This document shows positions 9,034 to 60,324 of a DNA stretch of 64,000 nt, in pieces (positions within the stretch are counted from its first letter, which is position 1; each line of letters opens with the position of its first letter). Source of the DNA: Deltaproteobacteria bacterium (GTDB taxonomy: Bacteria > Myxococcota > B64-G9); the NCBI GenBank assembly GCA_030622135.1, contig JAUXGL010000001.1:601-64600 (forward strand), written 5' to 3'. The translations under genes and the position numbers were made by a program. The notes beneath the pieces are model-generated. The model did not search any database, had not been told where the DNA came from, and worked only from the letters and a program-made list of their open reading frames with translations.

Positions 9034-10181
9034 CGCCGCTTATCTTTTTTCTGGTAGAACCGGGTCAGTATGATGCCGGCGAAGAAGCCGCCGATGTGGG
9101 CACTGAGTGCGACTCCGGAGCAGGTGCCCACCGAGCCGACCACCAGGAAGGCCAGCAACTGCCAGCCGATCCAGACGCCCAGGTACAGCCAGGTGGGAAC
9201 GTGCAAGACCGTCTGGATAACGAAAGTGGGGATGGTGGCGGAGGGGTACCGGACCAAAAATGCGCCCATGATTCCGGAGATGGCTCCGCTGGCGCCGACC
9301 GCGGGGATCTCCCCGCCCAGGTTGAACAGGAAGAAGATCAGGCCGGCTGTCAATCCCAGAAGCAGGTAGGTGCCCAAGAACTTCCAGCGCCCGAAGGCGT
9401 CCTCGATGGCGCGGGCGAATATCCACAAGAAGAACATGTTTCCCAGAAGATGCAGGGCGCCGCCGTGGATAAACATGTGGGTAAAAAAGGTGTAGATCCC
9501 CTGGCCTTCGGCGATCCGCGCGGGCGTCAAGCCGAAGCGCTCGAAGGTGGCTTGGGGAGTGTCGGGGCCGGCGATCTGATAGACGTAGATCAATATATTG
9601 ACGAGTACCAGAATGACGGACACCAGGGGGAATCGCCGTATGCCCACGCTGGTTCCGAGCGGCAGGATGATCTTGGGCAGAAAGAGCGAGCCGAGCATGA
9701 CCCGCTGGCTCGATTGGCGGCCCAGGGTGGCCAGGTCCTTTAGCGACTCGCGTTTCTTAACCGTCTGGGCGATGGCTTCCCCCAGCTTTTGCATGCGCTG
9801 CGATTCCCCGGGGTCGTGCAGATATCGAACCAGCGCGGAAAGCTCGCCCCCGTCGGCCCACTGGCCCCGGCACTGGGGGCAGCGGTCCAGCTCGATGTTG
9901 GAGACTCTCCCGAAGATTTCCGCAAGCATGGTTTTTTGGCACCGGGGGCACACGATCTCGCGGTGGGGGGTCGGCTGGGTGGGTGCCCCGGCCTGGGGAT
10001 CCAGCCGGGTCACCGACTGCGGCTGGGCCATGGCCTCGCGCATGACGTCGTCCAGCTCGCTGCGGTCGAACCAGATCCCGCCGCATTTTGGGCAAACGTC
10101 CACCTCGATCCCCTGGAAGGCGACCCTATCCAGGTTGGTTCCGTCCACCGGGCAAATTAGCTGGCCGATCGTGTCTGCCAT
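9030..10181 (-). CDS. Rhomboid-family intramembrane serine protease with N-terminal Zn-ribbon domains
   Basis: 383 aa; two CxxC...CxxC Zn-ribbon units (CPVDG...CPKCGGIWFD; CPRCQ...CPQCRGQWAD); C-terminal 6-TM rhomboid core with GASGAISGIMGA (GxSG) and SAHIGGF (catalytic His). Confidence 0.8.
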   Translation of the reverse strand: MADTIGQLICPVDGTNLDRVAFQGIEVDVCPKCGGIWFDRSELDDVMREAMAQPQSVTRLDPQAGAPTQPTPHREIVCPRCQKTMLAEIFGRVSNIELDRCPQCRGQWADGGELSALVRYLHDPGESQRMQKLGEAIAQTVKKRESLKDLATLGRQSSQRVMLGSLFLPKIILPLGTSVGIRRFPLVSVILVLVNILIYVYQIAGPDTPQATFERFGLTPARIAEGQGIYTFFTHMFIHGGALHLLGNMFFLWIFARAIEDAFGRWKFLGTYLLLGLTAGLIFFLFNLGGEIPAVGASGAISGIMGAFLVRYPSATIPTFVIQTVLHVPTWLYLGVWIGWQLLAFLVVGSVGTCSGVALSAHIGGFFAGIILTRFYQKKDKRR

Positions 10182-10218
10182 CGTGGTCGGGAAGAATACC
10201 AGATATTCCCCGAGGCGG

Positions 10219-10890
10219 CTACTTGAGCTCGACGCCGGTGCGCCTTCGTTCGCGGCGGCCCTCGTAGCCGGCCTTGCGCCAGTCGCGGGGTTCGCGGATC
10301 TCGTCCATGAGGTGGAGCCGGCCCTGGGCCTTCAGCCGGTCGTAGATGCGCAGCCAGGCGCAGGGGATCTCCGGGTCGATCTCGCAGTGGCCGTCCCGGG
10401 CGCCGCCGCAGGGGCCGTTCTGCAGGCTCTTGGCGCACAGAGTGATGGGGCAGATGCTCGCGGTGACGGTCAGCATGCAGTCGCCGCAGCCCTTGCACTT
10501 CTCGCGCCAGACGCCCGGCTCGTCGGCGCCGCCCATGAAGGTGGTGGAGAGCGCCGGGATGACCGGCAGGGGGTCGAAGACGTCGGCGACCATCTGGACG
10601 CCGACACCGCAGGCCAGCGACAGGATTGCGTCGGTGCCCTCGGGGATTTCCAGGTACTCTTTGAGTAGATCGTTTTCGCATTGGCGCTCGATGGTCAAAA
10701 CGATGAACCCGGGGGGTGGGCCTTCGAAATGCATGGGGTGGGAAAGGTCCCGAGCCAGGTCGTGAGCCTCGGCGTCGCCGCCGGCCCGGCAGACGGTAAC
10801 GCAGCCGCCGCAGCCCAGGACCAGCACCTGCCGGAATCCCTCGATGGAGGCGGCGATTTCCGCGATCGGTTTGAGATCGCCGACGATCAT
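10219..10890 (-). CDS. MetV-like (MTHFR C-terminal-domain-like) Cys-rich Fe-S/Zn protein
   Basis: Preferred start ATG 10890 (GGGAGG RBS 6 nt upstream) overlapping the upstream stop as ATGA. Cys clusters LGCGGCVTVC and CKGCGDC...LQNGPCGG...GHCEID...CAW match my memory of the MTHFR_C/MetV family signature; assignment from memory only. Confidence 0.5.
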   Translation of the reverse strand: MIVGDLKPIAEIAASIEGFRQVLVLGCGGCVTVCRAGGDAEAHDLARDLSHPMHFEGPPPGFIVLTIERQCENDLLKEYLEIPEGTDAILSLACGVGVQMVADVFDPLPVIPALSTTFMGGADEPGVWREKCKGCGDCMLTVTASICPITLCAKSLQNGPCGGARDGHCEIDPEIPCAWLRIYDRLKAQGRLHLMDEIREPRDWRKAGYEGRRERRRTGVELK

Positions 10891-11252
10891 GGCGTTTGCC
10901 TCCCGGCCTGGTGGCGCGCCCGGTGGCGTGGGCACAGAGGCTCGGCCAGGTCGACGAGCTTTTCATCCAGGGCTCCGGGCAGGCCATCGGTGAAAACCGG
11001 CTGGCCGCAGACCCGGCAGCGGATCAGCTTGAGGGTGACCACCTCGTCCCAGCGGTTTTCCAGCAGGTGCTGAAACTCCACGGCGCCCTGGGGGCAGATT
11101 CTCCAGCAGGTCAGGCAGCGTGCGCAGCGAGCCATGTTGTGAAGCAGCGCGCGGCTTTCTCCCTCGTCGCGGAAATCCAGTGCCCGGGCGGGGCAGTTCT
11201 GCACGCAGGCCAGGCAGCCGTTGCACTTTTCGTTGACCTGGAAGTAGCTCAT
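10887..11252 (-). CDS. 4Fe-4S ferredoxin-domain protein
   Basis: ORF-track ORF 10887..11546 starts with low-complexity junk; preferred start ATG 11252 (MSYFQVNEKCNGCLACVQNCP...CARCLTCWRICP = two CxxCxxCxxxCP motifs). Start overlaps IclR stop (ATGA). Confidence 0.6.
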   Translation of the reverse strand: MSYFQVNEKCNGCLACVQNCPARALDFRDEGESRALLHNMARCARCLTCWRICPQGAVEFQHLLENRWDEVVTLKLIRCRVCGQPVFTDGLPGALDEKLVDLAEPLCPRHRARHQAGRQTP

Positions 11253-12016
11253 GTCTTTCGCTCCAGCATGCTCCGGCCGATGGCGCCGGCCGTGCGTTTG
11301 GTCTCTTTCGCAATCCGCCGCATGTGCTCGGTGCTCATGCTGGGAGTGAATCCAACCACCCAGATGGCCGAGATCCGGCTGCCCCCGTTGGCAATCGGAG
11401 CGGCGACCGCGCGGACGCCCGAGATGTATTCCTCGTCGTCTAGGGCATAACCTTCGAGGCGCGCCCGTTCGACTTCCTGTAGAAACCGGGTTGCGTTCGT
11501 GATGGTGTTGGCGGTGAACCGGCGAAGTTTCTTGGCGCGGATCCACCGGCCGGCTTGGTCCGCGGGAAGCGAAGCCAAAAACACCTTGCCGATGGCGCCG
11601 GCGAGCAGCGGGATCCTCGTGCCGACCGGAGCGGTGATCTTCAGATCCTTGGTGGACTCGACTATGTCGAGAATGGTGACGGTGTTGCCGGAGCGGGTAC
11701 CCAGAAAGACCGACTCCTGGGTTTCTCTCATCAGCTCCTGTATGAAGGGACGGGCCAAGTCCTTCAGATCGATCTGGGCTTCGACTGCGCGTCCCAACTC
11801 GAAGAGGGTCGGTCCCAGCGAGTACCGCTTGGTTCCTTCGTCGCGAGAGACGGCACCCACGTCATCGAGAGCCGAGACGATCCCGAAGACAGTGCTCTTG
11901 CCGATGGGAAGCTGCCGGGCCAGGTCGCTTACCGTCATGCCCGCGTCGCTCTTAGACAACAACTTGAGTATCGAAAAGGCCTTCTTGACTATGGGGGCTT
12001 TATATTTGGTGCCCAT
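11249..12016 (-). CDS. IclR-family transcriptional regulator
   Basis: Preferred start ATG 12016 (MGTKYKAPIVKKAFSILKLL...): N-terminal wHTH (MTVSDLARQLPIGKSTVFGIV) and C-terminal IclR effector domain (GVRAVAAPI). ORF-track extension to 12451 looks like non-coding read-through. Confidence 0.85.
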   Translation of the reverse strand: MGTKYKAPIVKKAFSILKLLSKSDAGMTVSDLARQLPIGKSTVFGIVSALDDVGAVSRDEGTKRYSLGPTLFELGRAVEAQIDLKDLARPFIQELMRETQESVFLGTRSGNTVTILDIVESTKDLKITAPVGTRIPLLAGAIGKVFLASLPADQAGRWIRAKKLRRFTANTITNATRFLQEVERARLEGYALDDEEYISGVRAVAAPIANGGSRISAIWVVGFTPSMSTEHMRRIAKETKRTAGAIGRSMLERKT

Positions 12017-12128
12017 TGTTCGGTATAGTGAACAAACTCCCTCCCGGTAACATATCCCAACTGGCCCATTTGTCAACATTATTATTGACATAAGGGTGTC
12101 GGGTGCTATGCTCCCGGGTGTTAGTTGT

Positions 12129-48761: not shown

Positions 48762-49193
48762 TTATTGGCAGTCGCCGAGGTAGGGGATGGTCAGGACACC
48801 GTAGTCGTTGAAGCCCGCGTAGACCTCCATATCCCAGTAGCCCTCGTGGGTGATGAGCCCGTTGCGGCAGATGGCGGTCAGTTGCAGTTCGTAGGCGCCC
48901 GGGTAGAAGTTGTCGATGAGCGGGCACATATCTTCGCAGGAGCGGTTTTCGGCGCGGAATTCCAGGTTGCCCCAGGCGTCGTAGATGTACACGTCCATGC
49001 GTGAGATCTCGGCGTCGTAGCAGGAGTCGGTGGCGCTGCCGTCCCACCGCTCGAAGGACCAACAGAACGCGATATCGCCCAGGTCCGCTCCGCAGAGGTC
49101 TCCGACGCAGTGCGGGTTCTCGTGGCCGGTTATGATGCAGGCCGGCGACAGCAGAAGCATGACCGGCAGAATGGCGATGGTTATGGCTTTCAT
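48762..49193 (-). CDS. Small Cys-containing lipoprotein, hypothetical
   Basis: Preferred start MKAITIAILPVMLLLSPAC; the longer ORF-track N-terminus is unlikely to be real. Confidence 0.5.
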   Translation of the reverse strand: MKAITIAILPVMLLLSPACIITGHENPHCVGDLCGADLGDIAFCWSFERWDGSATDSCYDAEISRMDVYIYDAWGNLEFRAENRSCEDMCPLIDNFYPGAYELQLTAICRNGLITHEGYWDMEVYAGFNDYGVLTIPYLGDCQ

Positions 49194-49448
49194 TTTCGTT
49201 CCTCCTTCGGTTCTAACTACAGCAAGTCCCATGCCAACTCTGTTTTCCTTTCTAACGGGTCATGAAAAAAAGGAAACTGTGGTTCCCGCGCTGCTCCGCC
49301 GCGGCGGAGTTGCCAGATTTTTCATGCGATCTTCCAGTTTGGAACATCGGGAGGAGCCGTTTTGTGGCCCCCCAGGATCTTTCACCCAGACTTGACCGGC
49401 CCGTTTTATAGGCAGTACACTGCTTGCAAAGTCATTGAGGAGGTTGCC

Positions 49449-51176
49449 ATGCGCACGCTGTTCTTGGGAGTTCTTGTATCGGGGTTAGCACTTGCCGGCT
49501 GTCCCGCCGGGCCGGGAGCGGTTAAAAAGGAAGAAAAGATGGAGACGAAAGTGGAGAGTACTGCCGAGGTGGAGGCTAAGCTGAATGCGTTTATAGAAAA
49601 GCACGTGGCCCGGGTGGCTCCTTTGCAGAAAGAGCTGAACCTGGCGTCTTGGGATGCCTCTACAACCGGAAAGAAGGAATCCTACGAGCTGTCCAGCCTA
49701 AAAGAGCTGGAGATTATGAAGGTGTACTCCGATCCGGAAGCGTTCAAGCTAATCAAAGAGATCAAAGCCGGTGGCCAGGTCAAGGATCCCCTATTAAAGC
49801 GCCAGCTGACCGTTTTGTACCTGGGCTTCGAGGAAAACCAGGTTCCGGCGGAGCTTTCGGAGAAGATGGTCAAGCTCTCCACCGAGATTAAGAAGACCTT
49901 CAACGACTACCGCGGGACCGTGGGGGGCCGGCAGGTCACCGACAACGACATCTACGACATTCTCAAGTCGTCGACGGATTCAAAAAAGCGCCGGGAATGC
50001 TGGGAGGCCTACAAGCAGAGGGGCGCCCTGGTGCGGGACCGGTTGATCGAGTTGGTACGCCTTCGCAACCAGGCGGCCAAACAACTGGGGTACCGGAACT
50101 ACTACGAGATGCACCTGACGCTCATCGAGCAGGACCCGGCGAAAATCCGCTCCATCTTCGACGAGCTGGCCCGGCAGACCGACGGGCCGTTTAAAAAACT
50201 CATGGAGCGGATTAACCGGAAGTTGGCGGCCCGGTACGGTATTGAGCCTGAGCAGTTGAGGCCCTGGCATTACGAGGACCCCTTTTTCCAGGAGGTACCC
50301 ACCATCGGCAAGGTGGATCTTGATTCGATGTTTTCAAAAAGCGATCCCCGGGTTCTGGTCAACGGTTTCTTCAAGGGGATCGATCTGGATCCCGCCGACA
50401 TCCTGGACCGCTCCGACCTCTACGAAAAGAAGGGCAAGATGTCCCACGCCTTCTGCATCCACATCGATCGGAAGGGCGACGTGCGCATCCTGTCCAACTT
50501 GAGAAACAGCGAAAGATGGACTGCCACCCTCATGCACGAGATGGGCCACGCGGTATACGACAAGTACATCGACCGGAATCTACCCTGGCTGCTGCGCGAG
50601 CCCTCCCACAGCTTCACTACCGAGGCGATAGCCGAGCTCTTTGGTCGCCTGACCCGGAGCCCCGGCTGGCTCGTAAAAACGCTTAAGATTCCCGAAGAGA
50701 AGATCGGGAAGGTGGCCGAAGACATTCGCTTGCAGTTGCGCATGAACATGTTGATCATGGCTCGTTGGACCATGGTCGTGGTCAACTTCGAGCGCGAGTT
50801 GTATGCGAATCCCGAGCAGGATCTCAACCAGCTATGGTGGGACCTGAAGAAGCGCTACCAGTTGCTCACCCCGCCTGAAAGTCGCAGCGCTCCTGACTGG
50901 GCCTCCAAGATCCACTTCGCCGTCTGGCCGGCCTACTACCACAATTACATACTCGGTGAGCTGATGGCCAGCCAGCTGCTCGATCATGTCGCCAAAGAGA
51001 TCGTAAAGACCGACGATCCCGCCGGGATCGACGGAGTCGGCCAGGTCGAGCTGGGCCGCTACCTGAAGGAGAAGATCTTCAAGCCGGGCAAGAGCCTGCG
51101 TTGGGACCAGCTACTCATCCAGGCCACCGGCGAATCGCTCAACCCAAAGTACTTTTCCGAACAATTCGTGAAGTAG
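49449..51176 (+). CDS. M2-like (ACE-type) zinc metallopeptidase lipoprotein
   Basis: Preferred ATG 49449 (GAGGAGG RBS); lipobox LALAGC; HEMGH zinc motif in ACE-like context (LMHEMGHAVYDKY) and downstream Glu (EAIAELF). Confidence 0.7.
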   Translation: MRTLFLGVLVSGLALAGCPAGPGAVKKEEKMETKVESTAEVEAKLNAFIEKHVARVAPLQKELNLASWDASTTGKKESYELSSLKELEIMKVYSDPEAFKLIKEIKAGGQVKDPLLKRQLTVLYLGFEENQVPAELSEKMVKLSTEIKKTFNDYRGTVGGRQVTDNDIYDILKSSTDSKKRRECWEAYKQRGALVRDRLIELVRLRNQAAKQLGYRNYYEMHLTLIEQDPAKIRSIFDELARQTDGPFKKLMERINRKLAARYGIEPEQLRPWHYEDPFFQEVPTIGKVDLDSMFSKSDPRVLVNGFFKGIDLDPADILDRSDLYEKKGKMSHAFCIHIDRKGDVRILSNLRNSERWTATLMHEMGHAVYDKYIDRNLPWLLREPSHSFTTEAIAELFGRLTRSPGWLVKTLKIPEEKIGKVAEDIRLQLRMNMLIMARWTMVVVNFERELYANPEQDLNQLWWDLKKRYQLLTPPESRSAPDWASKIHFAVWPAYYHNYILGELMASQLLDHVAKEIVKTDDPAGIDGVGQVELGRYLKEKIFKPGKSLRWDQLLIQATGESLNPKYFSEQFVK

Positions 51177-51240
51177 GCTACGGGTCATCCCGCCACTCGA
51201 CCCTGATGTGGTTTCCGTTCTTGTCTTTGTAGACCCGACC
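51174..51240. repeat. Left copy of 67-bp imperfect direct repeat (duplicate of M50 protease gene 3' end)
   Basis: 62/67 identity with 53521..53587. The five mismatches fall mostly at codon third positions of the protease reading frame. Confidence 0.85.
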
Positions 51241-51271
51241 CCATTTTTCGACCTTGAATATGCGCACGGAT

Positions 51272-52252
51272 CTATATCCCCAGAATGCGGCCGATCGCCT
51301 TGGCTAGATCGGTAAACTCCTTGCGAGCCCTGGCCACAGCCTGAATCTGTCCACCACCGATTCCGTCGGCCTGCTTGAGATCGAAGATTGGCTTGCGAGC
51401 TTGCTGTGCGAGCGGCACCAGGCTCGCGAAGTGTTTCAGCAATGCGATGCAATGGGGGTCCCTGTCCACGCTCGCTGGCCAGCGTTTCTCTGGTGTCTGG
51501 AGCACCTCATGGTGGAACACTGATGGGATCTGGCTCGCCCAACGCTGGTACCCGCGCACAGGTCTGTCCGACCGTGCAAGGTGCTGCTGTACGATGTACC
51601 CTCTTGGCAGGAACTCATGCGCAACCGGGCGTGGATCAGTCCGCTCGGCGGCGCGCTGCCAGTCTTTGCGCCAATCCCTCATCACAGGTCCCACGTTCCG
51701 GAGCCCCTGGAGGCTGAACAAATCCGGAGCGACCGGCAGGATAACCACGTCTGCGGCCAGGAGCGCTGCCCGGTTGAGCGCCCCCAGGTTGGGTCCGACG
51801 TCGAGCAGCAGCACATCGGCTTCGACCTTCTCCGCGGCGATGTCCGCAAGCCGCTGCAGGGCAGTAGCCACGTGGAGAGCCTTCTCATTGTCAGATTGAT
51901 GGATCTGCCCCCAGCTCTCCGCCAAAGGCTGCTCGAACCGGCCCAGCGCCAAGTCTCCAGGAAGAACCCAAAAATCATCGGCGATCTGGACCGGGGCTGG
52001 ATCCACGATGTCGCCCTTGCCGCGGCGGACCAGATCGATACACCGGGCCACGGTCGTCCCTCTAGGATCTTCAGACTCCCAGAGATCGACGAGACTCTCT
52101 TCGCTGAGACAGATGGCGGACAAGTTGCACTGGGGATCGTAGTCCAAGGCGATCGTCTTGAATCCCTGGCGAGCAAGTATGTGAGCGATGTTGAAGGTCA
52201 GGGTGGTCTTTCCCACTCCGCCCTTGTTGTTGAACAGGACAAGCGATTTCAA
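51272..52252 (-). CDS. ParA/MinD-like P-loop ATPase with C-terminal extension
   Basis: 326 aa; deviant Walker A NNKGGVGKTT; 4-nt overlap with upstream AlbA_2 gene. Confidence 0.75.
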   Translation of the reverse strand: MKSLVLFNNKGGVGKTTLTFNIAHILARQGFKTIALDYDPQCNLSAICLSEESLVDLWESEDPRGTTVARCIDLVRRGKGDIVDPAPVQIADDFWVLPGDLALGRFEQPLAESWGQIHQSDNEKALHVATALQRLADIAAEKVEADVLLLDVGPNLGALNRAALLAADVVILPVAPDLFSLQGLRNVGPVMRDWRKDWQRAAERTDPRPVAHEFLPRGYIVQQHLARSDRPVRGYQRWASQIPSVFHHEVLQTPEKRWPASVDRDPHCIALLKHFASLVPLAQQARKPIFDLKQADGIGGGQIQAVARARKEFTDLAKAIGRILGI

Positions 52253-53442
52253 GTATGACTCCGAATTGTGATGACCGTGTAGCCATCCGTCCTCACTTCG
52301 AACGGCGGGTTGCCATTTTTTTCTAGAAGTCGGCGCACCCGTTGGATGCCGCGACCCAGGCGCTCGACATATCCCAACTCGACCAGCAGGTTGGTGATGG
52401 TCGGATTCCGGTAGTCGGCCTGATCCCCGAATTCACCCTCCTTGGCCTGGCCATACGGACCACCCGGGTTGTAGAACTCGATCCGATCCTTGAACCAATT
52501 AATTCTGCCGGGCGCGTTCGTCCCCTCGTACAGCCTGTGCTGGACCTGGTTCCGCGCAAGCTCCCTCAGAGCCTCGACCGGATACTCCGGCGGGTACGGG
52601 GTTCGGATTCCCTGCTCCTTGGCCACCACCTGCGAGTTGTTGGCATTCAACTGAGCCCAGATGGTCTCCAGTTGGTCACACAGGTCTCCGGTGATGGTGC
52701 GTCGGCTTGTCACGGTCGAATCGACATCGACGCCATCGTAGCGCGCGAACTCCACGAGCGCCCCTGGCAGGTAGGTCAATGGATCCACACCGTACACGAG
52801 GACCGCGGCAGTGGTGGGCACCCAGATTCCGTCCACCAAGCGGGCCAGGTTCTTCTGCCCAAGCCATTTCTCGAACTCGGGGAAGGTCTGGTCATCCTCG
52901 TCCGAGTGCCGGGCGACATCGTACCGCTCCCGGAGTTTGCGCAGCGCCAGGGCGCCCAGGTCTGACCCGCGATGCGGCCTGATATCGAAGGGTTGACGAC
53001 CCTCGGGACGTCGTTCGTTTAATCGGACTCGATCTGCCTCGGTGGCTCGTTGGGTCGAGGTGCCCACTCGCACCCAGGGAACACCATTGACCTCGACCAC
53101 GGGCGGAACGGGATATGGCTGGACGCGGACCACGAGTATTTCACAACCAGCGATGTCGGCCTTCTGCACCCCGAACGAAGGGTTGGGGAGAATCTTCGTA
53201 GATTTCAACCTGTTGACAACTCTCTGGATGGCTTCGTCGGAGGCATCCGTCCCGACAGGTTCGCCCCTCTTGTTCACTCCGATGAGAATGACACCCGGAC
53301 GCCCACTGTCGCCGAGGTCGTTGGAGAAAGCGCATGCGGACCTGACCACGTCGTCGCTATCCGATTCTTTCCACTCAGACCATTCGCTCTCGCCAGCCAA
53401 GGCTTCTTTAACTATGGCCAGTATTTCGCCCGCTCCAGACAT
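52249..53442 (-). CDS. Schlafen-like AlbA_2 + HATPase_c_4 (RecG-C-terminal-like) putative DNA-binding ATPase
   Basis: 397 aa; N-terminal AlbA_2-like (EWKES...SACAFSNDLGDSGRPGVILIGV); C-terminal GHKL-like segment (ALRELARNQVQHRLYEG...RIEFYNPGG). Confidence 0.7.
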   Translation of the reverse strand: MSGAGEILAIVKEALAGESEWSEWKESDSDDVVRSACAFSNDLGDSGRPGVILIGVNKRGEPVGTDASDEAIQRVVNRLKSTKILPNPSFGVQKADIAGCEILVVRVQPYPVPPVVEVNGVPWVRVGTSTQRATEADRVRLNERRPEGRQPFDIRPHRGSDLGALALRKLRERYDVARHSDEDDQTFPEFEKWLGQKNLARLVDGIWVPTTAAVLVYGVDPLTYLPGALVEFARYDGVDVDSTVTSRRTITGDLCDQLETIWAQLNANNSQVVAKEQGIRTPYPPEYPVEALRELARNQVQHRLYEGTNAPGRINWFKDRIEFYNPGGPYGQAKEGEFGDQADYRNPTITNLLVELGYVERLGRGIQRVRRLLEKNGNPPFEVRTDGYTVITIRSHT

Positions 53443-53520
53443 ACAGGAATTGAACCAGTTTTTTCAACTTCGAGCAAGGATCTAGACATTGGTACCCCGT
53501 TTCTTAGGCTCCCGTTGGGG

Positions 53521-53587
53521 TAGGCTACGGGTCGTCCTGCCACTCGACTCTGATGTGGTTTCCGTTCTTGTCTTTGTAGACTCGACG
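53521..53587. repeat. Right copy of 67-bp direct repeat = authentic 3' end of M50 protease gene
   Basis: Encodes ...VYKDKNGNHIRVEWQDDP* on the minus strand. Confidence 0.85.
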
Positions 53588-54364
53588 GGTCCCTTGTGGG
53601 GGCGCCGGTTGGTCGGGGTCGAGGATTTCCCAGTCGGTGCCGGGAACCCGGAAGCCCGCCGACTCGGCGAAGCGCCGGAAAGGATCGAGCACCGGGCGGG
53701 TGTGCCGCGGGGCGTCCTGGTAGCCGGGATCGCCCAGGTACTGCCGGGCCCGGGCGGCGCCTTCCTCGGCGAAGGCCAAAAACAGCAGGAAAGCGGCCAG
53801 CACCAGGAACCACCCGGAGTAGATCACCCCGAAGACGGCCAGGGCCATGGCCAGCCAGCGAGCCACGCGGGCCGCCACGGTGGTGGCTCGGTAGAAGCCC
53901 ATCTTTCGGGCCAGGTAGGCCCGAAGGATTCTCCCTCCGTCCATGGGCAGGGCGGGTAGCAGATTGAAGGCGCCCAGCATCAGGTTGATCTTGGCGAGGA
54001 GCCAGAGCGTGTAGTTGCCGGTGAGCCAGGCGGCGACGCCGATGGCAACCGCCAGGATCAGGCTTACCGCCGGGCCCGCGGCGGCCATGAGGATCTCGTC
54101 GCGAGTGGTCTTCGGCGCGGACGTCATTCGGGCCATTCCCCCGAAGGGATACAGGGAGATGTCCATGATTTTCATTCCCAGCGAACGGGCCGCCAGGGCA
54201 TGTCCAAGCTCGTGCAGAATTACCGAGATGAATACGGCGATCGTTACAACCAGGCCGTACACTCCGCCTCCGGTGAAAAGCACTATCGCCAGGAATATCA
54301 GTAGGCTAATGTGCACCCGGATGGGGAATCCAAAGATACTGCCCATGTAGTACGACCAACGCAT
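53525..54364 (-). CDS. Site-2 protease family (M50) zinc metalloprotease
   Basis: 279 aa; HELGHAL zinc motif in TM helix, multiple TMs, LDGG motif. Confidence 0.8.
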   Translation of the reverse strand: MRWSYYMGSIFGFPIRVHISLLIFLAIVLFTGGGVYGLVVTIAVFISVILHELGHALAARSLGMKIMDISLYPFGGMARMTSAPKTTRDEILMAAAGPAVSLILAVAIGVAAWLTGNYTLWLLAKINLMLGAFNLLPALPMDGGRILRAYLARKMGFYRATTVAARVARWLAMALAVFGVIYSGWFLVLAAFLLFLAFAEEGAARARQYLGDPGYQDAPRHTRPVLDPFRRFAESAGFRVPGTDWEILDPDQPAPPQGTRRVYKDKNGNHIRVEWQDDP

Positions 54365-54505
54365 CTTTTCTCCTGCCCCTATAATGTAAGGCCTGGGGGT
54401 AGGATTTCAAGGGCTATTGGAGGGACAACGTCGTTTGTTTTTCATCTTGCTTGTCCCATTTGGACATGTTAGACAAAACGACTCTTTGTTTGCGGGAGAT
54501 CTTGC

Positions 54506-55951
54506 GTGGACGAGTCAGAGCGGGACCAGCCGGAAAGCGATATAGACGAGGCGGAGCGGGCCGAATTCCTGGCGGCCATGCAGCAGGAGATCGAGGTTGC
54601 TCATGCCGGGAGCGGTGAGATTGTCACCGGCGCCATTATTTCCATCGGCTCGGATTTTGCCTTCATCGATCTGGGCACCAAGAGCGAGGGGGTCATCTCG
54701 GTCGAGGAGATCCGGGAGGAGGACGGCTCGCTTCCCGCCGTGGGGGCCGAAGTAGAGGCCTGTGTTCTTTCCTCCGGGCCCGATGGCCTGATTCTTTCCA
54801 AGCGTCTGGCCAAGGGGATCCGTGACCGGGAATTCCTGCAGGAGGCGGCCCGCAACCGCATCCCCGTCGAGGGGAGGGTGGTGGGAAGAAATAAGGGCGG
54901 ATTCGAAGTGGATGTGGCCGGGTTGCGGGCCTTCTGTCCCGTGGGGCAGATCGAGCTGCGCTTTTGCGAAGATCCCGACGTGCATCTGAACCAGAAGCAT
55001 GCCTTCCTGATTACCAAGTACGACGACAGCGGGCGCCGGCCGGACGTGGTGGTTTCCCGCAAAGAGCTTCTGCAGGCCGAGGCGGACAAACTGGCCGAAG
55101 AGCTGCGCGAGACCCTGAAAGAGGGCGATGTGGTTGCCGGAACGGTACGGGCCATCAAGGACTTCGGTGCCTTCGTGGATCTGGGAGGGCTGGAGGGGCT
55201 GCTGCATGTCTCCGAGTTGTCGCACCAGCACGTCGACGATCCCAAGGAGATGTTGAAGGTGGGCGAGGAAATCCATGTGCAGGTGCTGTCCATCAAGCCG
55301 GGAGACCGGATCTCGCTGAGTCTCAAGAGGCTGGAGGCCGACCCCTGGGACGATGCCATGCTCTCCTTTCCGGAGGGGAGCCGGGTCCGCGGCAAGGTGG
55401 TGCGACTGCAACCCTTCGGTGCGTTCGTGGAACTGGTGCCGGGAGTGGACGGACTGATTCACGTCTCGAACTTTAACTCGCCCGAACGGGTGGGACATCC
55501 CCGGGAGGTACTCGAGCAGGGCCAGGAAGTGGATGTCGAGGTGCTGTCCGTTGATCCCCAGAACCGCAGGATCGGCCTGGCCCGGGTGCCCTCCGACGGA
55601 GAGTTCGGCTCCATTCCCGTGGTGGGAGCGGTGCTGGAAGGCAAGGTGGACAAGGCGGTCAACTTCGGGGTGTTTGTAACCCTGGGGCCCGGTCGCAAGG
55701 GCCTGGTTCCTAACATAGAAATGGGCACATCCAAGGGAGCGGACCACCGCAAGCAGTTCCCGCCGGGCACGCCCATGAAGGTCAAGGTGCTGGAGGTGAC
55801 CGACAACGGCCGGAAAATCCGGCTCAGCCTCAAGGCGGCCCGGGAGGCGCAGGAAAGGGCCGAGTTCGAAGGATATGTTCAACAGGACGCCAAGGATTCC
55901 TCCGGTGGTTTCGGTACCCTGGGGGATATCTTGAAAAAGAAGATCACCTAG
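54506..55951 (+). CDS. S1 RNA-binding-domain protein (ribosomal protein S1-like, several S1 repeats)
   Basis: GTG start; at least five S1-like repeats (G.V..I..FGAFV.L..G..GL.H.SE). Confidence 0.8.
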   Translation: MDESERDQPESDIDEAERAEFLAAMQQEIEVAHAGSGEIVTGAIISIGSDFAFIDLGTKSEGVISVEEIREEDGSLPAVGAEVEACVLSSGPDGLILSKRLAKGIRDREFLQEAARNRIPVEGRVVGRNKGGFEVDVAGLRAFCPVGQIELRFCEDPDVHLNQKHAFLITKYDDSGRRPDVVVSRKELLQAEADKLAEELRETLKEGDVVAGTVRAIKDFGAFVDLGGLEGLLHVSELSHQHVDDPKEMLKVGEEIHVQVLSIKPGDRISLSLKRLEADPWDDAMLSFPEGSRVRGKVVRLQPFGAFVELVPGVDGLIHVSNFNSPERVGHPREVLEQGQEVDVEVLSVDPQNRRIGLARVPSDGEFGSIPVVGAVLEGKVDKAVNFGVFVTLGPGRKGLVPNIEMGTSKGADHRKQFPPGTPMKVKVLEVTDNGRKIRLSLKAAREAQERAEFEGYVQQDAKDSSGGFGTLGDILKKKIT

Positions 55952-55998
55952 CGTAGGTCTCAGGCAGACGCTGTGTCTAACCACACAGGGGAGACAAC

Positions 55999-56496
55999 AT
56001 GGTAAACCCGAAGATACAGATCAAGACCAACTTGGGCGACATCGAGGTGGAGCTGGATGCGGGGAAAGCTCCCCTTAGCACGGCGAACTACCTGCAGTAT
56101 GTAAAAGACCGGCACTACGCCGGCACCGTGTTTCACCGGGTGATCCCCGGCTTTATGGCTCAGGGCGGTGGTTTCGACAAGAGCTTCAACCAGAAGCCCA
56201 CCCGTGACCCCATCAAAAACGAAGCCGAGAACGGCCTGAAGAACCTGCGCGGCACCCTGGCCATGGCCAGGACCAACGAGGTGAACTCGGCCACCTCCCA
56301 GTTTTTCATCAACCTGGCCGACAACTCCTTTTTGGACAACGGATCGCGCGACTTCGGCTACGCCGTTTTCGGCAAGGTGACCGGGGGCATGGACGTGGTC
56401 GACAAGATTGCAGAGACGCCCACCGGTTCCAAGGGCTCTTTCTCCAAGGACTGTCCTCAATCAGACGTTGTCATAGAGTCGGTTGAGACCCTGTAA
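55999..56496 (+). CDS. ppiB: Peptidyl-prolyl cis-trans isomerase, cyclophilin type (cytoplasmic)
   Basis: 165 aa; [27 protein letters not shown] cyclophilin signatures. Confidence 0.9.
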
Positions 56497-57095: not shown

Positions 57096-57236
57096 GCCCT
57101 TGGTGAGGGCACATCGATAACAGGTATTCGATATTGCGCTTGTTGGTCTGACCTACGCCGCAAACGGCGCGGAAGCTGACCCTGGGGCCACCGGCCCGGC
57201 CAGCCAAGAGCCCGCTTCCGGCAGACGACGGCTTCT

Positions 57237-57548
57237 TTGCCGATCCCGTCCGAGTTCGACTGCATGGATGAGCCGCCCGTGGTCGAGGAGAAAACTCGGG
57301 ACAAAAGCAAAGAGGTCTGGCAACCCAGGAGCCTCCCGGACCTGCTTGAACATTTCGAAGTGTTTGAATTGTCTCACAACAAAGTTGAATCGTTACCAGC
57401 CTCCGAGGCTAACGTATCATCCCAAGAGGCAATTGGAAAATCATGTAAAAGAATTTGGCCTTTTGTGGCAACAATGATTTCAGCTGTCTTGGGTATCCTA
57501 GGAATTTTAGTTTGTTGTTTAATCAATTTGTTAAGATACCAATCATAA
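57237..57548 (+). CDS. Possible small C-terminally membrane-anchored protein spanning the GC-rich to AT-rich junction (doubtful)
   Basis: 103 aa; first ~20 codons have host-like high GC3, the rest lies in AT-rich DNA; C-terminal TM WPFVATMISAVLGILGILVCCLINLL. May be a disrupted host ORF fused to island DNA. Confidence 0.25.
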   Translation: MPIPSEFDCMDEPPVVEEKTRDKSKEVWQPRSLPDLLEHFEVFELSHNKVESLPASEANVSSQEAIGKSCKRIWPFVATMISAVLGILGILVCCLINLLRYQS

Positions 57549-57998
57549 CCTACATTTCGCAAGTCACGGAGGGTGTTCTGGGGAGAATTTCCTCGTACTA
57601 TGATAGAGGGTCCATCAGGCGTAGACTGACGGGTCCATGTCGAGGAGACGGAGGAGTTGTTTTTGTATACCAGAGAGCTCGATAGGAAACGTGGCCATCT
57701 CTTTTCCTCTTTCGAAATCATACCAGCAGACGTCGCTGAACTGAATGTCATTTCGAGGAGCGCAGCACGGTGTCGTTGACCCCTAGGTTCGGTCGAGGAT
57801 GCCGGCAGGGGCGGAGTGTGCCTGGATTCACGTCTTTTCTCGTAGTCGTGCCTGAGATTGTCGTCGCTGGGCTTGATTCATAAGGTTGAATCGTGGTCTG
57901 TTTCCAAATTGGAACTCGATGGAAGGAGTGACTCGGAGGAAAAGGTCCTTTATTACACCTATCCCTTACGCCACGATTATCTGACGAAGGGGTTGACC

Positions 57999-58649
57999 AT
58001 GAAGAAAAAGCGCAAACTAAACATTCTTGTGTCTTCGGTAGTGTATGGGTACGAAGACCTGCTGGAGAGCGTGTATTCGCTCCTGGAGACCTTCGGATAC
58101 AAAGTGCTCATGTCGCATAAGGGCACCGTGCCGATCGATCCGGACATCTCGGCAATGACCAGTTGCCTGGAAGCGGTCAAGAGGTGCGACCTATTCCTTG
58201 GCATCATTCTGCCACGATATGGATCAGGGAAAGAGCAGAAAGGCGGTCTGTCCATAACCCATCGCGAAGCACTGCACGCCATCAAAATGAACAAACCCCG
58301 CTGGTTTCTTGTCCATGAGCACGTTGCCATCGCCCGCCAGCTTCTTGATCCGTACCGCGACGAGACGAAGAAGCCAGAGTTCAAACTCAAACGTGGCACC
58401 ACTTTCAAGTCGACGTCGATCCTTTCCGATTTGCGCGTCCTTGAATTGTATGAAGCCGCCATGCGGCATAACGTGCCCGAGATCGCACACCGCAAAGGGA
58501 ACTGGGTGCAGTCCTACGGGCCGGACGACGATGCGCGTCTCTTCGCCACGGCGCAGTTCCGTCGCCACAGGGAATTGGCTGAGAAGTACCTGCCCAAGCT
58601 GGAAGACACGGGAGCGATTCGGGATCGGGTAGAGGGATGCAAATCATGA
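57999..58649 (+). CDS. DUF4062/TIR-like small protein (candidate defence effector or sensor)
   Basis: Preferred ATG 57999 (MKKKRKLNILVSSVVYGYEDLLESVYSLLETFGYKV...). Pattern hydrophobic-ISS...DL.E.R/ES...L, flavodoxin-like size, resembles DUF4062 as remembered. Overlaps the next gene by 13 nt. Confidence 0.55.
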   Translation: MKKKRKLNILVSSVVYGYEDLLESVYSLLETFGYKVLMSHKGTVPIDPDISAMTSCLEAVKRCDLFLGIILPRYGSGKEQKGGLSITHREALHAIKMNKPRWFLVHEHVAIARQLLDPYRDETKKPEFKLKRGTTFKSTSILSDLRVLELYEAAMRHNVPEIAHRKGNWVQSYGPDDDARLFATAQFRRHRELAEKYLPKLEDTGAIRDRVEGCKS

Positions 58650-60028
58650 GATCTGACGTCCTCCATGTGATCGAGAACGGGGAGTCCGAGACCGCTGAGT
58701 TCAAGAGTTCTCGCAGTTCGTTCGAGGCACTTGCACGAGCCGTCTGCGGGATGCTCAACCAGCAGGGAGGTGTACTTCTTTGGGGTGTCGATGATACCGG
58801 GCAGCTGACGGGCGTGGAAGATGCCGAGGCCCAAGCAGAGGACCTGACGCACTTTCTGATGCGTCACATGAACCCACGCCCCTTGCTTTCCGTCTCGGTG
58901 CATGAGGCCAAGGGCAAGCCGATCATCATGGTTGATGTGCCCTCGGGTTCGGACAAACCATACTCGCTGGGCCGGCAGATTTTGGTCCGCATCGGGAGCA
59001 GAACGATGCGCGCCGGTGTGGACGAAAGTGCGGCTTTGGTGGAGCAGAGCGCGATAGAGCTGGAACGCTGGGAGCGTGAACCCATGCCCGGCTTTGCGGT
59101 GGAAGACTGCGATGTTGATGAGCTTGAGAAAGCAAGATCCGAGATCGCGCAAGCAGGGCGATTCGGAATCGATGCTCCTGCGAGTGACGAAGAACTGTTG
59201 CAACGTCTCTATCTGTGGCGCAACGGACAGGTCACGAATGCCGGTGTTGTCCTTTTCGCATCTCAACCGCGCATGTGGGTGCCTAACGTCTTCGTGCGTG
59301 TTGTGTCCTACGCTGAAGGCAAGGCTGGGCCCATCGCCAACGATGTGATCGTGGATGGTCCAGCCGTCCGATCTCTGCGTGAGGTCGTGACAATCATTCA
59401 GCAACGCACCGGTTTCTCCGGTAGGTTCGTGAAGGGCAAACTGAAACGCGAAGATCGGCCTGCGTATTCCGTGTTCGCCCTGAGGGAGGGACTGGTGAAT
59501 GCCATCACTCACCGGTCTTACGAGGTCATAGGCGGCAGTGTGTGCGTGGAGATATTCCCAGATCGTCTCGTCATCCGCAATCCGGGCAGACTGCCGGACG
59601 GGTGGACAGCACAAGACCTGCGACGCGTGCACGGGTCGCATCCATTCAACCCGGACATTGCCCAAGTGTTTCTCCTGCGCGGGCTGATGGAACAGCTTGG
59701 GATGGGGACACAGAAACTGATGGCCGCGTGCAAGGAACTGGGCGCCAAACTGCCGGTTTGGCGCGTCGAACAGGGCACTGTGGCACTGACGATCTTCCAG
59801 GCACCCGAACCGGAGGCGGCAGACGTGCTGACAGGGCGTCAGGCCGAATTCGTTGGCTCGCTGATGGCTGGAGCTGAGTTCAGAGCTGCCGATTATTTGA
59901 GCGCTACCGGTATGAGTGAGCGCCAGGGGCGGCGTGACCTGGCTGAACTGGAGAAACGGGGGATCATCGAACGCCACGGCAAGGGACGGGCCACGGTGTA
60001 TAGACGGACTGACGGGGGTCGCTCATGA
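58637..60028 (+). CDS. Schlafen-like AlbA_2 + HATPase_c_4 + C-terminal wHTH protein (RecG-C-like putative regulator/ATPase)
   Basis: 463 aa; AlbA_2-like (ETAEFKSS...LARAVCGMLNQQGGVLLWGVDDTGQLTGV), GHKL-like (NAITHRSYEV...VCVEIFPDRLVIRNPGRLPDG), wHTH (DYLSATGMSERQGRRDLAELEKRGIIERHGKGRATVYRR). Same layout as 52249..53442. Confidence 0.7.
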   Translation: MQIMRSDVLHVIENGESETAEFKSSRSSFEALARAVCGMLNQQGGVLLWGVDDTGQLTGVEDAEAQAEDLTHFLMRHMNPRPLLSVSVHEAKGKPIIMVDVPSGSDKPYSLGRQILVRIGSRTMRAGVDESAALVEQSAIELERWEREPMPGFAVEDCDVDELEKARSEIAQAGRFGIDAPASDEELLQRLYLWRNGQVTNAGVVLFASQPRMWVPNVFVRVVSYAEGKAGPIANDVIVDGPAVRSLREVVTIIQQRTGFSGRFVKGKLKREDRPAYSVFALREGLVNAITHRSYEVIGGSVCVEIFPDRLVIRNPGRLPDGWTAQDLRRVHGSHPFNPDIAQVFLLRGLMEQLGMGTQKLMAACKELGAKLPVWRVEQGTVALTIFQAPEPEAADVLTGRQAEFVGSLMAGAEFRAADYLSATGMSERQGRRDLAELEKRGIIERHGKGRATVYRRTDGGRS

Positions 60029-60324
60029 TGCCAGTCCGGCCAAATCCGGCCAGAATCGGCCACCCCCTGAATGTCCACCTTAGCCGGTGTTGTAACCCAT
60101 TTCCGAGGTGTGCTGCGTGCCCCGCAATTTGTTACAGTGCACGCAGTTACGGCGACTGCGTCGCGAAACCAACAGAATTCGGCCAAATCCGGCCACATTC
60201 GGCCACGTTCGGTTTACGCACGAAGGGCAGATCGCGAACGCAACGAGAATCTGACCCGGATTACACCGATGACACGACTTGGCGCCTCCATTGACGAGGG
60301 CCGTCTGAACGGCTGGTTGGGCTA

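Follow-up and report, generated by a model that had tools for sequence, protein, structure and literature searches.

Our analysis of a 64,000-nucleotide (nt) stretch of the genome of a Deltaproteobacteria bacterium (assembly GCA_030622135.1, contig JAUXGL010000001.1), here called the window and taken in full for all coordinates, revealed a two-gene cassette inserted between two convergent peptidase genes. It is bracketed by 67-nt imperfect direct repeats that duplicate the 3' end of one of them, an M50 (site-2 protease family) gene. The cassette encodes a ParA/Soj-type ATPase and a protein that joins an AlbA_2 (Schlafen) domain to a GHKL ATPase domain, for which we use the name Schlatpase. Comparison with further loci, which carry L-numbers below, shows that the gene pair is one conserved, translationally coupled and widely transferred operon, present in at least 8 bacterial phyla and in Methanosarcinales. 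At about 14 unrelated loci besides the window, the module or a solo Schlatpase lies between direct repeats (25-296 bp) that consist of host sequence from the locus. The reading that we prefer, at a little short of even confidence, is that a candidate defence or addiction module entered by host recombination anchored on an incoming end of the target gene, and that the resident end was displaced as an orphan.

The cassette and its flanking repeats

The features of the region, with lengths of proteins in amino acids (aa), are as follows.

49362..51176, plus strand: M2/M3-type peptidase gene; 604-aa open reading frame (ORF), called as 575 aa from 49449; Pfam Peptidase_M2 2e-30, Peptidase_M3 1e-20
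51173..51239, minus strand: left repeat, a displaced orphan of the M50 3' end without the M50 body; tblastn match to M50 residues 261-279, 94.7%
51240..51271, minus strand: 32-nt spacer from the ParA stop to the orphan repeat, the distal edge of the inserted DNA; no terminator-like site
51272..52252, minus strand: ParA/Soj-type ATPase gene, 326 aa, with a TTG start overlapping the upstream stop
52249..53442, minus strand: Schlatpase gene, 397 aa
53443..53519, minus strand: 77-nt leader from the M50 stop and right repeat to the Schlatpase start; no consensus promoter or terminator
53520..53586, minus strand: right repeat, the functional M50 3' end
53525..54364, minus strand: M50 gene, 279 aa, the target gene; Pfam Peptidase_M50 4.7e-25

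The two repeats lie 2347 nt apart from start to start, are identical at 63 of 67 positions (94%) with an identical core of 32 nt, and form the sole outstanding direct-repeat family in a repeat search of positions 49000-56000; pairwise BLAST of the window's flanks recovered the pair at 101 bits (E 1.8e-25). An earlier note on this DNA had reported the repeats at 51174-51240 and 53521-53587, a frame that is one base off and gives 62/67, but the pair itself is real. As the note had proposed, the right copy is the genuine M50 3' end: it comprises the last 20 codons of the gene, which encode a tail ending in RRVYKDKNGNHIRVEWQDDP, and the stop, plus 5 nt. The left copy, read in the same frame, ends in RVYKDKNGNHIRVEWRDDP before its stop and so encodes nearly the same peptide, with three synonymous changes (from right to left CGA>CGG, AGA>AGG and GAC>GAT) and one replacement (CAG>CGG, Q to R). 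The stop codon of the M2 gene (TAG, 51174-51176) falls within the left repeat, and because the repeat includes this convergent stop codon the M50 and M2 genes are both intact.

The extra DNA thus amounts to 2347 bp (51240-53586), namely the 32-nt spacer, the ParA-like gene, the Schlatpase gene, the 77-nt leader and one copy of the repeat. The two ORFs share 4 nt (TTGA), and no further ORF with a family match was found between the repeats; the ORF list and Pfam agree here with the earlier description of only two overlapping genes and no integrase. The GC content of the cassette (0.57-0.64) is like that of its surroundings. No Rfam family, tRNA, consensus promoter or terminator was found in or beside it, and no tRNA gene in the window. 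Since the 77-nt leader has neither a consensus promoter nor a terminator, transcription by read-through from M50 is likely. Five assemblies made independently from one population (L001-L005) all have the identical cassette structure, and the right repeat copy is identical in L001 and L002. In the second of these assemblies (L002:7500-7900) the M50 gene carries a 9-bp and a 40-bp deletion, the latter frameshifting, in otherwise identical sequence, which represents either a pseudogenised allele or an assembly error.

Insertion into the M50-M2 junction

Relatives with the gene order S1 - M50 - M2 - aminotransferase were found by a metagenome scan with M50 and by look-ups of M50 homologues. The M2 peptidase gene was syntenic with M50 in L006, L007, L010, L011/L012, L165 and L166, and the junction between the two genes was found in the following states (M50 identities are at the aa level).

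L166, M50 84%: empty; M50 stop, 12 nt, M2 stop, with the M50 tail intact
L006, M50 86%: empty; the equivalent of window positions 51181-53611 is absent, and the last 28 M50 codons are absent too
L007, M50 59%: empty, with M50 and M2 adjacent
L165, M50 83%: 441-aa AAA_14/DUF4143 ATPase (L165:4818-6143), which matches the PADLOC candidate defence gene PDC-S01 at 3e-27
L011/L012, M50 64%: ParE toxin
L010, M50 54%: hybrid histidine kinase

The empty junctions in the close relatives L166, L006 and L007 show that the cassette is an insertion into an ancestrally tight convergent M50-M2 junction. The earlier note had expected an empty site in relatives if the cassette had been inserted, and the same two genes fixed in all of them if it were an old duplication; the relatives showed empty sites and other cargo. 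The junction behaves as a small hot spot for defence and accessory genes, and no direct repeats were found around its other cargo (L010, L012 and L165).

The C-terminal tail motif of M50 (..VVEWRDGP) is conserved across the family, the tails of P0242-P0250 reading EWRDG, and is therefore ancestral. At the four sites that differ between the window's two copies, the left (displaced) copy has the L165/L166 state at three, including the R in EWRD, and the functional copy has it at one. Several models agree with this 3:1 distribution of ancestral states, and either copy may be the one native to the window.

Two further differences were seen among these relatives. In L006 (10180-10200) the M50 protein ends ..WEVIDPD, yet the window-type stop-to-stop junction 'TAG C CTA' is kept; the missing 28-codon tail could be an independent 84-nt deletion or the scar of an imprecise loss of the cassette. 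The same locus has an extra 133-aa ORF between the M50 and S1 genes (L006:8934-9335), about 580 bp here being absent from the window, and L165 has a 132-aa gene annotated as PilZ at the same position.

The two proteins

The Schlatpase was matched by Pfam SLFN_AlbA_2 (PF04326, residues 18-133, 2.7e-14; 54.2 bits against a gathering score of 25.3) and, further along the same polypeptide, by HATPase_c_4 (PF13749, residues 313-390, 7.5e-16; 58.4 bits against 26), which is the domain order that defines the Schlatpase supradomain; a C-terminal helix-turn-helix (HTH) is absent. The best Foldseek match of its AlphaFold2 model (pLDDT 86.6) was 3lmm (Corynebacterium diphtheriae DIP2311, E 9e-19). The N-terminal part matched the Schlafen domains of SLFN11, SLFN13, SLFN14, SLFN12 and SLFN5 and the tRNase domain of SAMD9, and the C-terminal part matched the ATP-binding domains of histidine kinases (catalytic and ATP-binding, CA) and pyruvate dehydrogenase kinases (PDK), indicating a Bergerat fold. 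Across 48 homologues, residues E18, E23, K25, D69, E294, N298 and G363-R364-G365 were invariant. We take the E-x4-E spacing to be that of the Schlafen acidic pair, as in SLFN13. The corresponding pair of CbCash is E17/D22 (PMC13462974). Folds and conserved residues together predict a nuclease-like domain and an ATPase domain. In PADLOC 2.0 the protein matched solely the region shared with proteins associated with prokaryotic Argonautes (pAgo).

The second protein was matched by Pfam AAA_31 (1.6e-24) and CbiA (4e-14), and its AlphaFold2 model (pLDDT 89.5, pTM 0.89) shows one ParA/Soj fold over the full length. The closest structure was 3pg5 (C. diphtheriae DIP2308, E 8e-19, TM 0.70), followed by Soj, ParA, McdA and MinD. 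The Walker A motif KGGVGKT (K10-T16) and the aspartates D37 (A') and D151 (B) are invariant or nearly so in 44 homologues, and this deviant Walker A, the A' and B aspartates and the ParA fold place the protein among the ParA/MinD (SIMIBI) ATPases. The NCBIfam family ParA_partition scored 65 bits against a cut-off of 180, and other partition families were likewise below their cut-offs; the PADLOC 2.0 comparison gave one 37-residue P-loop match to PDC-M28B.

The ParA/Soj fold with its deviant Walker A resembles the ATPase of a ParABS partition system. The cassette differs in having no ParB, parS or replicon, and in that its ParA gene lies downstream of, and overlaps, a Schlafen-GHKL gene. A partition system was rejected on the grounds of this partner, the NCBIfam scores far below cut-off and the lack of a match to the Schlatpase in PLSDB.

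Distribution of the gene pair

Contigs of GTDB species representatives returned nothing with the single Schlatpase as query and 80 loci with an alignment (A2). Of the candidates scored, 948 were homologous to the Schlatpase at E<=1e-10, with identities of 50-71% and a spread over many phyla. In 63 of the 80 GTDB loci the Schlatpase was followed downstream, at a distance of 0-30 nt, by a full-length ParA-like homologue, two more loci being cut by the contig end, and the same arrangement was seen in L071, L075, L077, L078 and L161. Identities across loci were 35-71% for the Schlatpase and 40-82% for ParA, and hosts of the pair included Acidobacteriota, Planctomycetota, Myxococcota, Chromatiaceae, Chloroflexota, Verrucomicrobiota, Alpha- and Gammaproteobacteria and Methanosarcinales. 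Copies in other genomes, which the earlier note had proposed to look for, are therefore found in many phyla. Identity of the module does not follow the apparent taxonomy of the host, being 58-59% to Acidobacteriota and 51-52% to named Myxococcota.

The closest copies (70-71% aa identity for the Schlatpase, 79-82% for ParA) occur in another organism, downstream of an IgGFc_binding gene. Their noncoding flanks (L071/L077) are unrelated to those of the window: the 77-nt leader is unlike the upstream region that these loci have of their own, and the 32-nt spacer has no similarity to the matching region. Because these flanks are not conserved, the ends of the module are not definable from these two loci.

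One subclade of Thermoanaerobaculia/Acidobacteriota (L072, L073, L082, L083, L085-L087, L101, L117 and L126) has the Schlatpase without ParA. The solo gene is syntenic, with PspA - AAA upstream, with L078/L089, where ParA remains, and this synteny implies a secondary loss of ParA. In Thiocapsa sp. KS1 (L075/L108) the module (L075:8001-10188) shares the variable region next to glmS with a PemK toxin gene and an IS110 transposase, and its ParA is broken into ORFs of 274 and 59 aa.

Searches with the Schlatpase of PLSDB plasmids, INPHARED phages and IMG/VR were negative or gave trivial matches. As the Schlatpase gene was not found in PLSDB, where the ParA gene was not separately queried, the module was likewise not found on these plasmids. 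The pair is without a model in PADLOC 2.0, and no paper combining 'Schlafen' with 'ParA-like' was found in the literature searched, in keeping with the earlier remark that the pairing is not a named system.

Direct repeats at other loci

Flanking repeats were sought by comparing the 800 nt upstream of the Schlafen start with the 800 nt downstream of the ParA stop at a threshold of 40 bits. Seven of 54 modules with complete flanks reached 40 bits or more, compared with 0 of 312 same-size random segments of the same loci, among which the maximum was 34 bits (Fisher P 1e-6). Direct repeats at this threshold were present at eight loci other than the window.

L091, Archangium: 126 bp, 92%
L104, Myxococcales: 48 bp, 100%
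L105, Planctomycetia: 179 bp, 96%
L106, Chromatiaceae: 34 bp, 94%
L130, Acidobacteriota: 198 bp, 99%
L135, Planctomycetaceae: at least 166 bp, 85.5%
L142, Methanosarcinales: 33 bp, 94%
L144, Anaerolineales: 25 bp, 100%

With flanks of 3.5 kb, direct repeats were found at 10 loci of the pair, the window being the eleventh, and at five loci of solo Schlatpases (L087, L156, L157, L158 with 296 bp at 87.5%, and L159), while inverted repeats were found at two loci and were trivial. The short repeats of L106, L142 and L144 are hairpin-like and could be repetitive extragenic palindromic (REP)-type elements. Most Schlatpase copies (approximately 80-85%) have no flanking repeats. The 141-bp repeat of L156 was set aside, as it is the C-terminal HTH tail and terminator shared by tandem Schlatpase paralogues. 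At that locus (L156:5418-8494) Schlatpases of 512 aa, with a Fic-like_C HTH tail, and 405 aa are each followed by a copy of the HTH tail plus terminator, and an AAA_21 (AbiEii-like) ATPase gene follows the tandem.

Where the repeats could be assigned to genes, they correspond in L105 to the 3' end of a sigma-54 activator gene, in L130 (which is the same as L164) to the first ~190 nt of a SpoU methylase gene, in L135 to the 5' end of a DUF1156 methylase gene and in L158 to the 3' end of an SNF2-NOV_C helicase gene. In each of these, as in the window, a displaced gene fragment lies beyond the cargo and an intact copy of the gene is kept. The two copies in L135 differ by 20 synonymous and one non-synonymous codon at 15% nt divergence, and those in L158 by 22 synonymous and 11 non-synonymous codons, with 28 of 37 differences at third positions and 12.5% divergence. 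Differences that are mostly synonymous rule out decay of an orphan after duplication at these two loci, and the copies are clearly homeologous, with patterns of substitution that indicate derivation from different alleles. The window's copies have a ratio of 3:1 from only four differences, the chance of at least three of four falling at third positions being 0.11. In L164 (6801-8004) the Schlatpase is split into ORFs of 198 and 221 aa, by a frameshift or an assembly error.

The cassette as a unit and the search for mobility genes

Two Planctomycetaceae species (L133 and L135) share the cassette at 86% nt identity, over a stretch that begins ~25 nt ahead of the Schlafen ATG and ends 16 nt past the ParA stop. 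Within one and the same island the cassettes (9906-12115 in both) are placed differently: that of L133 comes after a large upstream gene and well ahead of the DUF1156 gene, and that of L135 lies inside the 5' end of the DUF1156 gene, with the duplication. The shared stretch is so tight that the cassette carries little more than a ribosome-binding site, and probably relies on read-through. The cassette also adjoins a DUF1156 methylase gene in L155, just past the ParA stop, which together with L133 and L135 suggests a recurrent association with DUF1156-type systems.

No recombinase was present in the Pfam tables for ~17 kb around the window's cassette (~44.4-61.6 kb), and none of 82 ORFs located up to 6.5 kb from 11 other repeat-bracketed copies gave a match to the Pfam families Phage_integrase and Resolvase, in a scan spiked with lambda Int, XerD and resolvase baits, all of which were recovered. 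The gene tables of L001, L164, L161 and L078 held no recombinase, and that of L075 only an IS110-family transposase ~6 kb upstream. No significant inverted-repeat or direct similarity was found between the inner ends at nine loci, nor a motif shared downstream of ParA at ~60 loci. The sequence and length of the repeats and the type of target differ in every genome, with no common attachment (att) core. A transposon or insertion sequence was rejected, as there are no terminal inverted repeats, the duplications (25-296 bp) have no fixed length and neither protein matches a transposase family. The earlier suggestion of either a decayed integrative element or a compact accessory module therefore stands in its second part, a module without an integrase, and is not supported in its first: repeats at the end of the M50 gene fit a site-specific element, but there is no recombinase and no recurring att core or target, and the remnants of an integrase that were to be searched for are found neither inside the cassette nor in the Pfam tables and ORFs just described.

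How the cassette may have arrived

In our preferred explanation, the donor would be a related genome that already carried the cassette downstream of M50. The final 62 nt of M50 would arrive on the incoming DNA as an allele of its own, together with both stop codons, and this short homology would serve as an anchor for host recombination. The event could be an insertion-type (Campbell or 'ends-in') recombination in which the fragment is circular or permuted, or a homology-facilitated illegitimate recombination whose second joint falls just upstream of the resident tail. The incoming tail would then complete M50, and the resident tail would be pushed to the far side to survive as an orphan next to M2, with no need for an integrase or transposase. 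The same process, combined with frequent lateral spread, could leave diverged gene-end duplicates around Schlatpase cassettes elsewhere. Incoming DNA with its own version of the target, as the earlier note proposed, fits the left copy's L165/L166 state at three of four sites and the near-synonymous copies at the analogous loci L135 (20:1) and L158 (22:11). Repeat-flanked copies may persist, we speculate, because selection acts against the loss of an addictive module by way of the repeats.

As to function, the pair may act as a two-component conflict module of the anti-phage/abortive-infection or addiction type. By analogy with SLFN-pAgo and Cash, the Schlafen domain would cut RNA (probably tRNA), with the GHKL ATPase gating assembly of the nuclease, and the ParA/Soj-type ATPase could be a sensor, a tether or an antidote that silences the nuclease; members of the ParA/Soj family bind DNA as an ATP dimer, and the cassette ATPase may do the same. 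SLFN-GHKL proteins and Schlafen effectors act in defence (10.64898/2026.05.29.728809; PMC13462974). Genes of defence are often found as neighbours of the module: restriction-modification methylases, DUF1156, the SNF2-NOV_C helicase, AAA_21, PDC-S01, ParE and, in the window, a second Schlatpase with DUF4062 3.5 kb away.

Several points weigh against this explanation. The crossover is not placeable without the donor allele or an empty site from the same strain, and the window's repeats, with only four differences, do not distinguish it from an in-situ duplication. Insertion that depends on an anchor covers spread among relatives and not the first arrival at a new locus, and the other cargo of the M50-M2 junction shows no repeats. 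The 312 controls are random segments rather than other recently acquired accessory genes. The discrete unit shared by L133 and L135 is not obviously predicted by random host recombination, although deletion bias could trim the flanks. With regard to function, defence, toxicity and RNA cleavage are only predicted for this family, and the module is not in PADLOC 2.0; moreover, ParA is not an obligatory antidote, given that the Thermoanaerobaculia subclade keeps the Schlatpase without it. The tight boundaries of the unit, and repeats around this cargo alone at the M50-M2 junction, leave room for in-situ duplication or for mobility specific to the cassette.

Duplication of the target in situ, which we consider unlikely, would involve insertion at staggered breaks 67 nt apart, where fill-in gives identical copies that later diverge; the breaks could come from a transposition-like event, capture by non-homologous end joining or template switching during replication. 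It would explain a first arrival at new loci without pre-existing homology and is consistent with repeat lengths that vary from 25 to 296 bp, with the near-identical pairs of L130 (198 bp, 99%), L104 (48 bp, 100%) and L144 (25 bp, 100%) and with the window's four differences. The synonymous bias of L135 (20:1) and L158 (28 of 37 differences at third positions) is incompatible with neutral decay of an orphan; in this scenario, strongly diverged pairs would stem from a subsequent replacement of the functional gene by another allele through homologous recombination. In the window, moreover, it is the selected copy and not the orphan that holds three of the four derived states, and there was no sign of a transposase, of terminal inverted repeats or of a constant length of the duplications. 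Ancient, fixed local duplication without mobility, in which the genes are resident and the repeat is the relic of an old rearrangement, would agree with the GC content and with the presence of the cassette in all five population contigs; we regard it as next to impossible, as it is refuted by the empty sites in L166, L006 and L007 and by the other cargo in L165, L010 and L012, and is opposed by the different context of the closest homologues (70-82% aa) in another organism and by module similarity that departs from host taxonomy.

Mobility driven by the cassette itself is, in our judgement, quite unlikely. Here the Schlatpase, with or without a DNA-binding ParA, would drive its own spread and leave long, variable target duplications, whether by homing-like break-and-copy or through a 2.35-kb circular intermediate maintained by ParA. 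The broader proposition, that Schlatpase genes alone or with their ParA partner are unrecognised self-spreading cassettes, promoterless and ORF-sized, which enter operons of bacteria and archaea without integrase or transposase and make or bring along variable target duplications of 25-300 bp, seems to us similarly improbable. In its favour, the repeats go with the Schlatpase gene itself, whether or not ParA is present, in 12 or more unrelated lineages and were seen in 0 of the 312 controls, the unit is discrete, promoterless and differently placed in the same island of L133 and L135, and other cargo at the window's site lacks repeats, with no recombinase nearby. Its difficulties are the lack of conserved end sequences for a protein to recognize, the finding that characterised Schlafen domains cut RNA and not DNA (10.64898/2026.05.29.728809; PMC13462974), the ~80-85% of copies without repeats, which include the window's second Schlatpase module, and the failure to find the family on plasmids, phages and viral contigs (PLSDB, INPHARED and IMG/VR). 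A decayed or non-autonomous site-specific element, similar to a cis-mobilizable element (CIME), is very unlikely in our view; the repeats would be attL and attR, and a tyrosine or serine integrase would be elsewhere or lost. A conserved-gene 3' end as target, with the gene restored, is the classic footprint of an integrase, and the imperfect repeats contain an identical core of 32 nt; in integrative elements, blocks of att identity are known to extend over tens to hundreds of bp. Between the repeats, however, the space is too small for an integrase or a remnant of one, none is present in the Pfam tables around the cassette or near the 11 other repeat-bracketed copies, and there is no tRNA gene in the window. 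Each host would also need a different resident integrase, because targets and repeat sequences differ in every lineage.

A second Schlafen-GHKL module in the window

The window contains a second Schlafen-GHKL gene (463 aa, 58637-60028, plus strand), which overlaps a DUF4062 gene (263 aa, 57858-58649, plus strand). This module lies in a patch of low GC (0.46-0.52 at 57250-58000) and within a variable stretch (57101-60324) where, in the closest relative (L006), 3.2 kb are replaced by 2.7 kb of unrelated genes with ORFs of 611 and 301 aa. No flanking repeats were found around it, and its PADLOC match is limited to the Schlafen-GHKL region shared with pAgo-associated proteins. Just downstream of the gene, at 60037-60063 and 60170-60216, are two clusters of a 10-nt periodic motif, CGGCCA(A/C)AT(C/T), which recurs three to four times, and these could be iterons to which a protein binds.

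Significance and comparison with known systems

A role for Schlafen nucleases in prokaryotic immunity was shown only in 2026, and the majority of the ~60,000 Schlafen-GHKL proteins of bacteria stand alone and are unstudied. The present pair defines a two-gene form, Schlatpase plus Soj/ParA-type ATPase, that is in no defence catalogue searched and thus constitutes a candidate system, with a possible role for a ParA ATPase other than segregation. The recurring, diverged gene-end duplicates free of recombinases are unexpected, and they are a clear natural footprint of small accessory modules entering chromosomes. Were host recombination responsible, they would provide a countable genomic signature of anchor-dependent illegitimate insertion; a cassette-specific process would be a new mobility mechanism.

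With genomic islets and CIMEs mediated by integrases, the cassette shares flanking direct repeats that duplicate a gene end and a target gene that is restored, whereas it lacks an integrase and a common att core, and its targets vary. Minimal mobile elements of Neisseria consist of variable cargo between conserved genes, swapped by homologous recombination without target duplication. The M50-M2 junction, with different or no cargo and no mobility genes, is similar, but here one type of cargo comes with a duplication. For effector-immunity arrays of Rhs, contact-dependent inhibition (CDI) and type VI secretion (T6SS) systems, displacement of orphans by homology-facilitated illegitimate recombination was proposed (PMC5361080). 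The shared logic is a gene end that serves as an anchor of homology, new cargo, an old 3' piece kept downstream as an orphan, and no recombinase. Those arrays use a dedicated, conserved toxin core as the anchor and carry a toxin tip with its immunity gene, in contrast to the cassette, for which the gene that happens to lie alongside (M50, SpoU, sigma-54 activator, methylase or helicase) would serve as the anchor and whose mechanism we infer by analogy.

The best structural matches of the pair, DIP2308 (3pg5) and DIP2311 (3lmm) of C. diphtheriae, are structural-genomics proteins of unknown function with 17-23% identity to the cassette proteins, DIP2311 being longer (583 aa). Their locus tags are three apart, and on the tags alone this suggests that the two families are neighbours in Corynebacterium. 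The Cash tRNA nucleases (PMC13462974), SLFN11, SLFN13 and SLFN14 and the tRNase of SAMD9 have the Schlafen fold and an N-terminal acidic pair in common with the cassette protein (E18/E23). The regulator in the cassette is a GHKL ATPase with a ParA-like partner, not a Csx15 sensor of cyclic tetra-adenylate (cA4) or a superfamily 1 (SF1) helicase, and there is no CRISPR linkage.

The nearest comparison is with the proteins of the AlbA_2 plus GHKL supradomain, for which the name Schlatpase was introduced and which number 60,692, mostly small and stand-alone; no conserved gene partner was reported for the SLFN-pAgos (10.64898/2026.05.29.728809). The cassette protein differs from SLFN-pAgo and other fusions in having no Argonaute, NACHT or restriction-modification fusion and no C-terminal HTH, and its activity is predicted from sequence. 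With the supradomain proteins, including SLFN-pAgo (RzAgo), it shares the domain order, predicted folds, invariant acidic and ATP-binding residues and the small stand-alone form, and like them it is horizontally mobile and often lies beside defence genes. The pair is an uncharacterised variant of these newly recognised prokaryotic Schlafen-GHKL systems.

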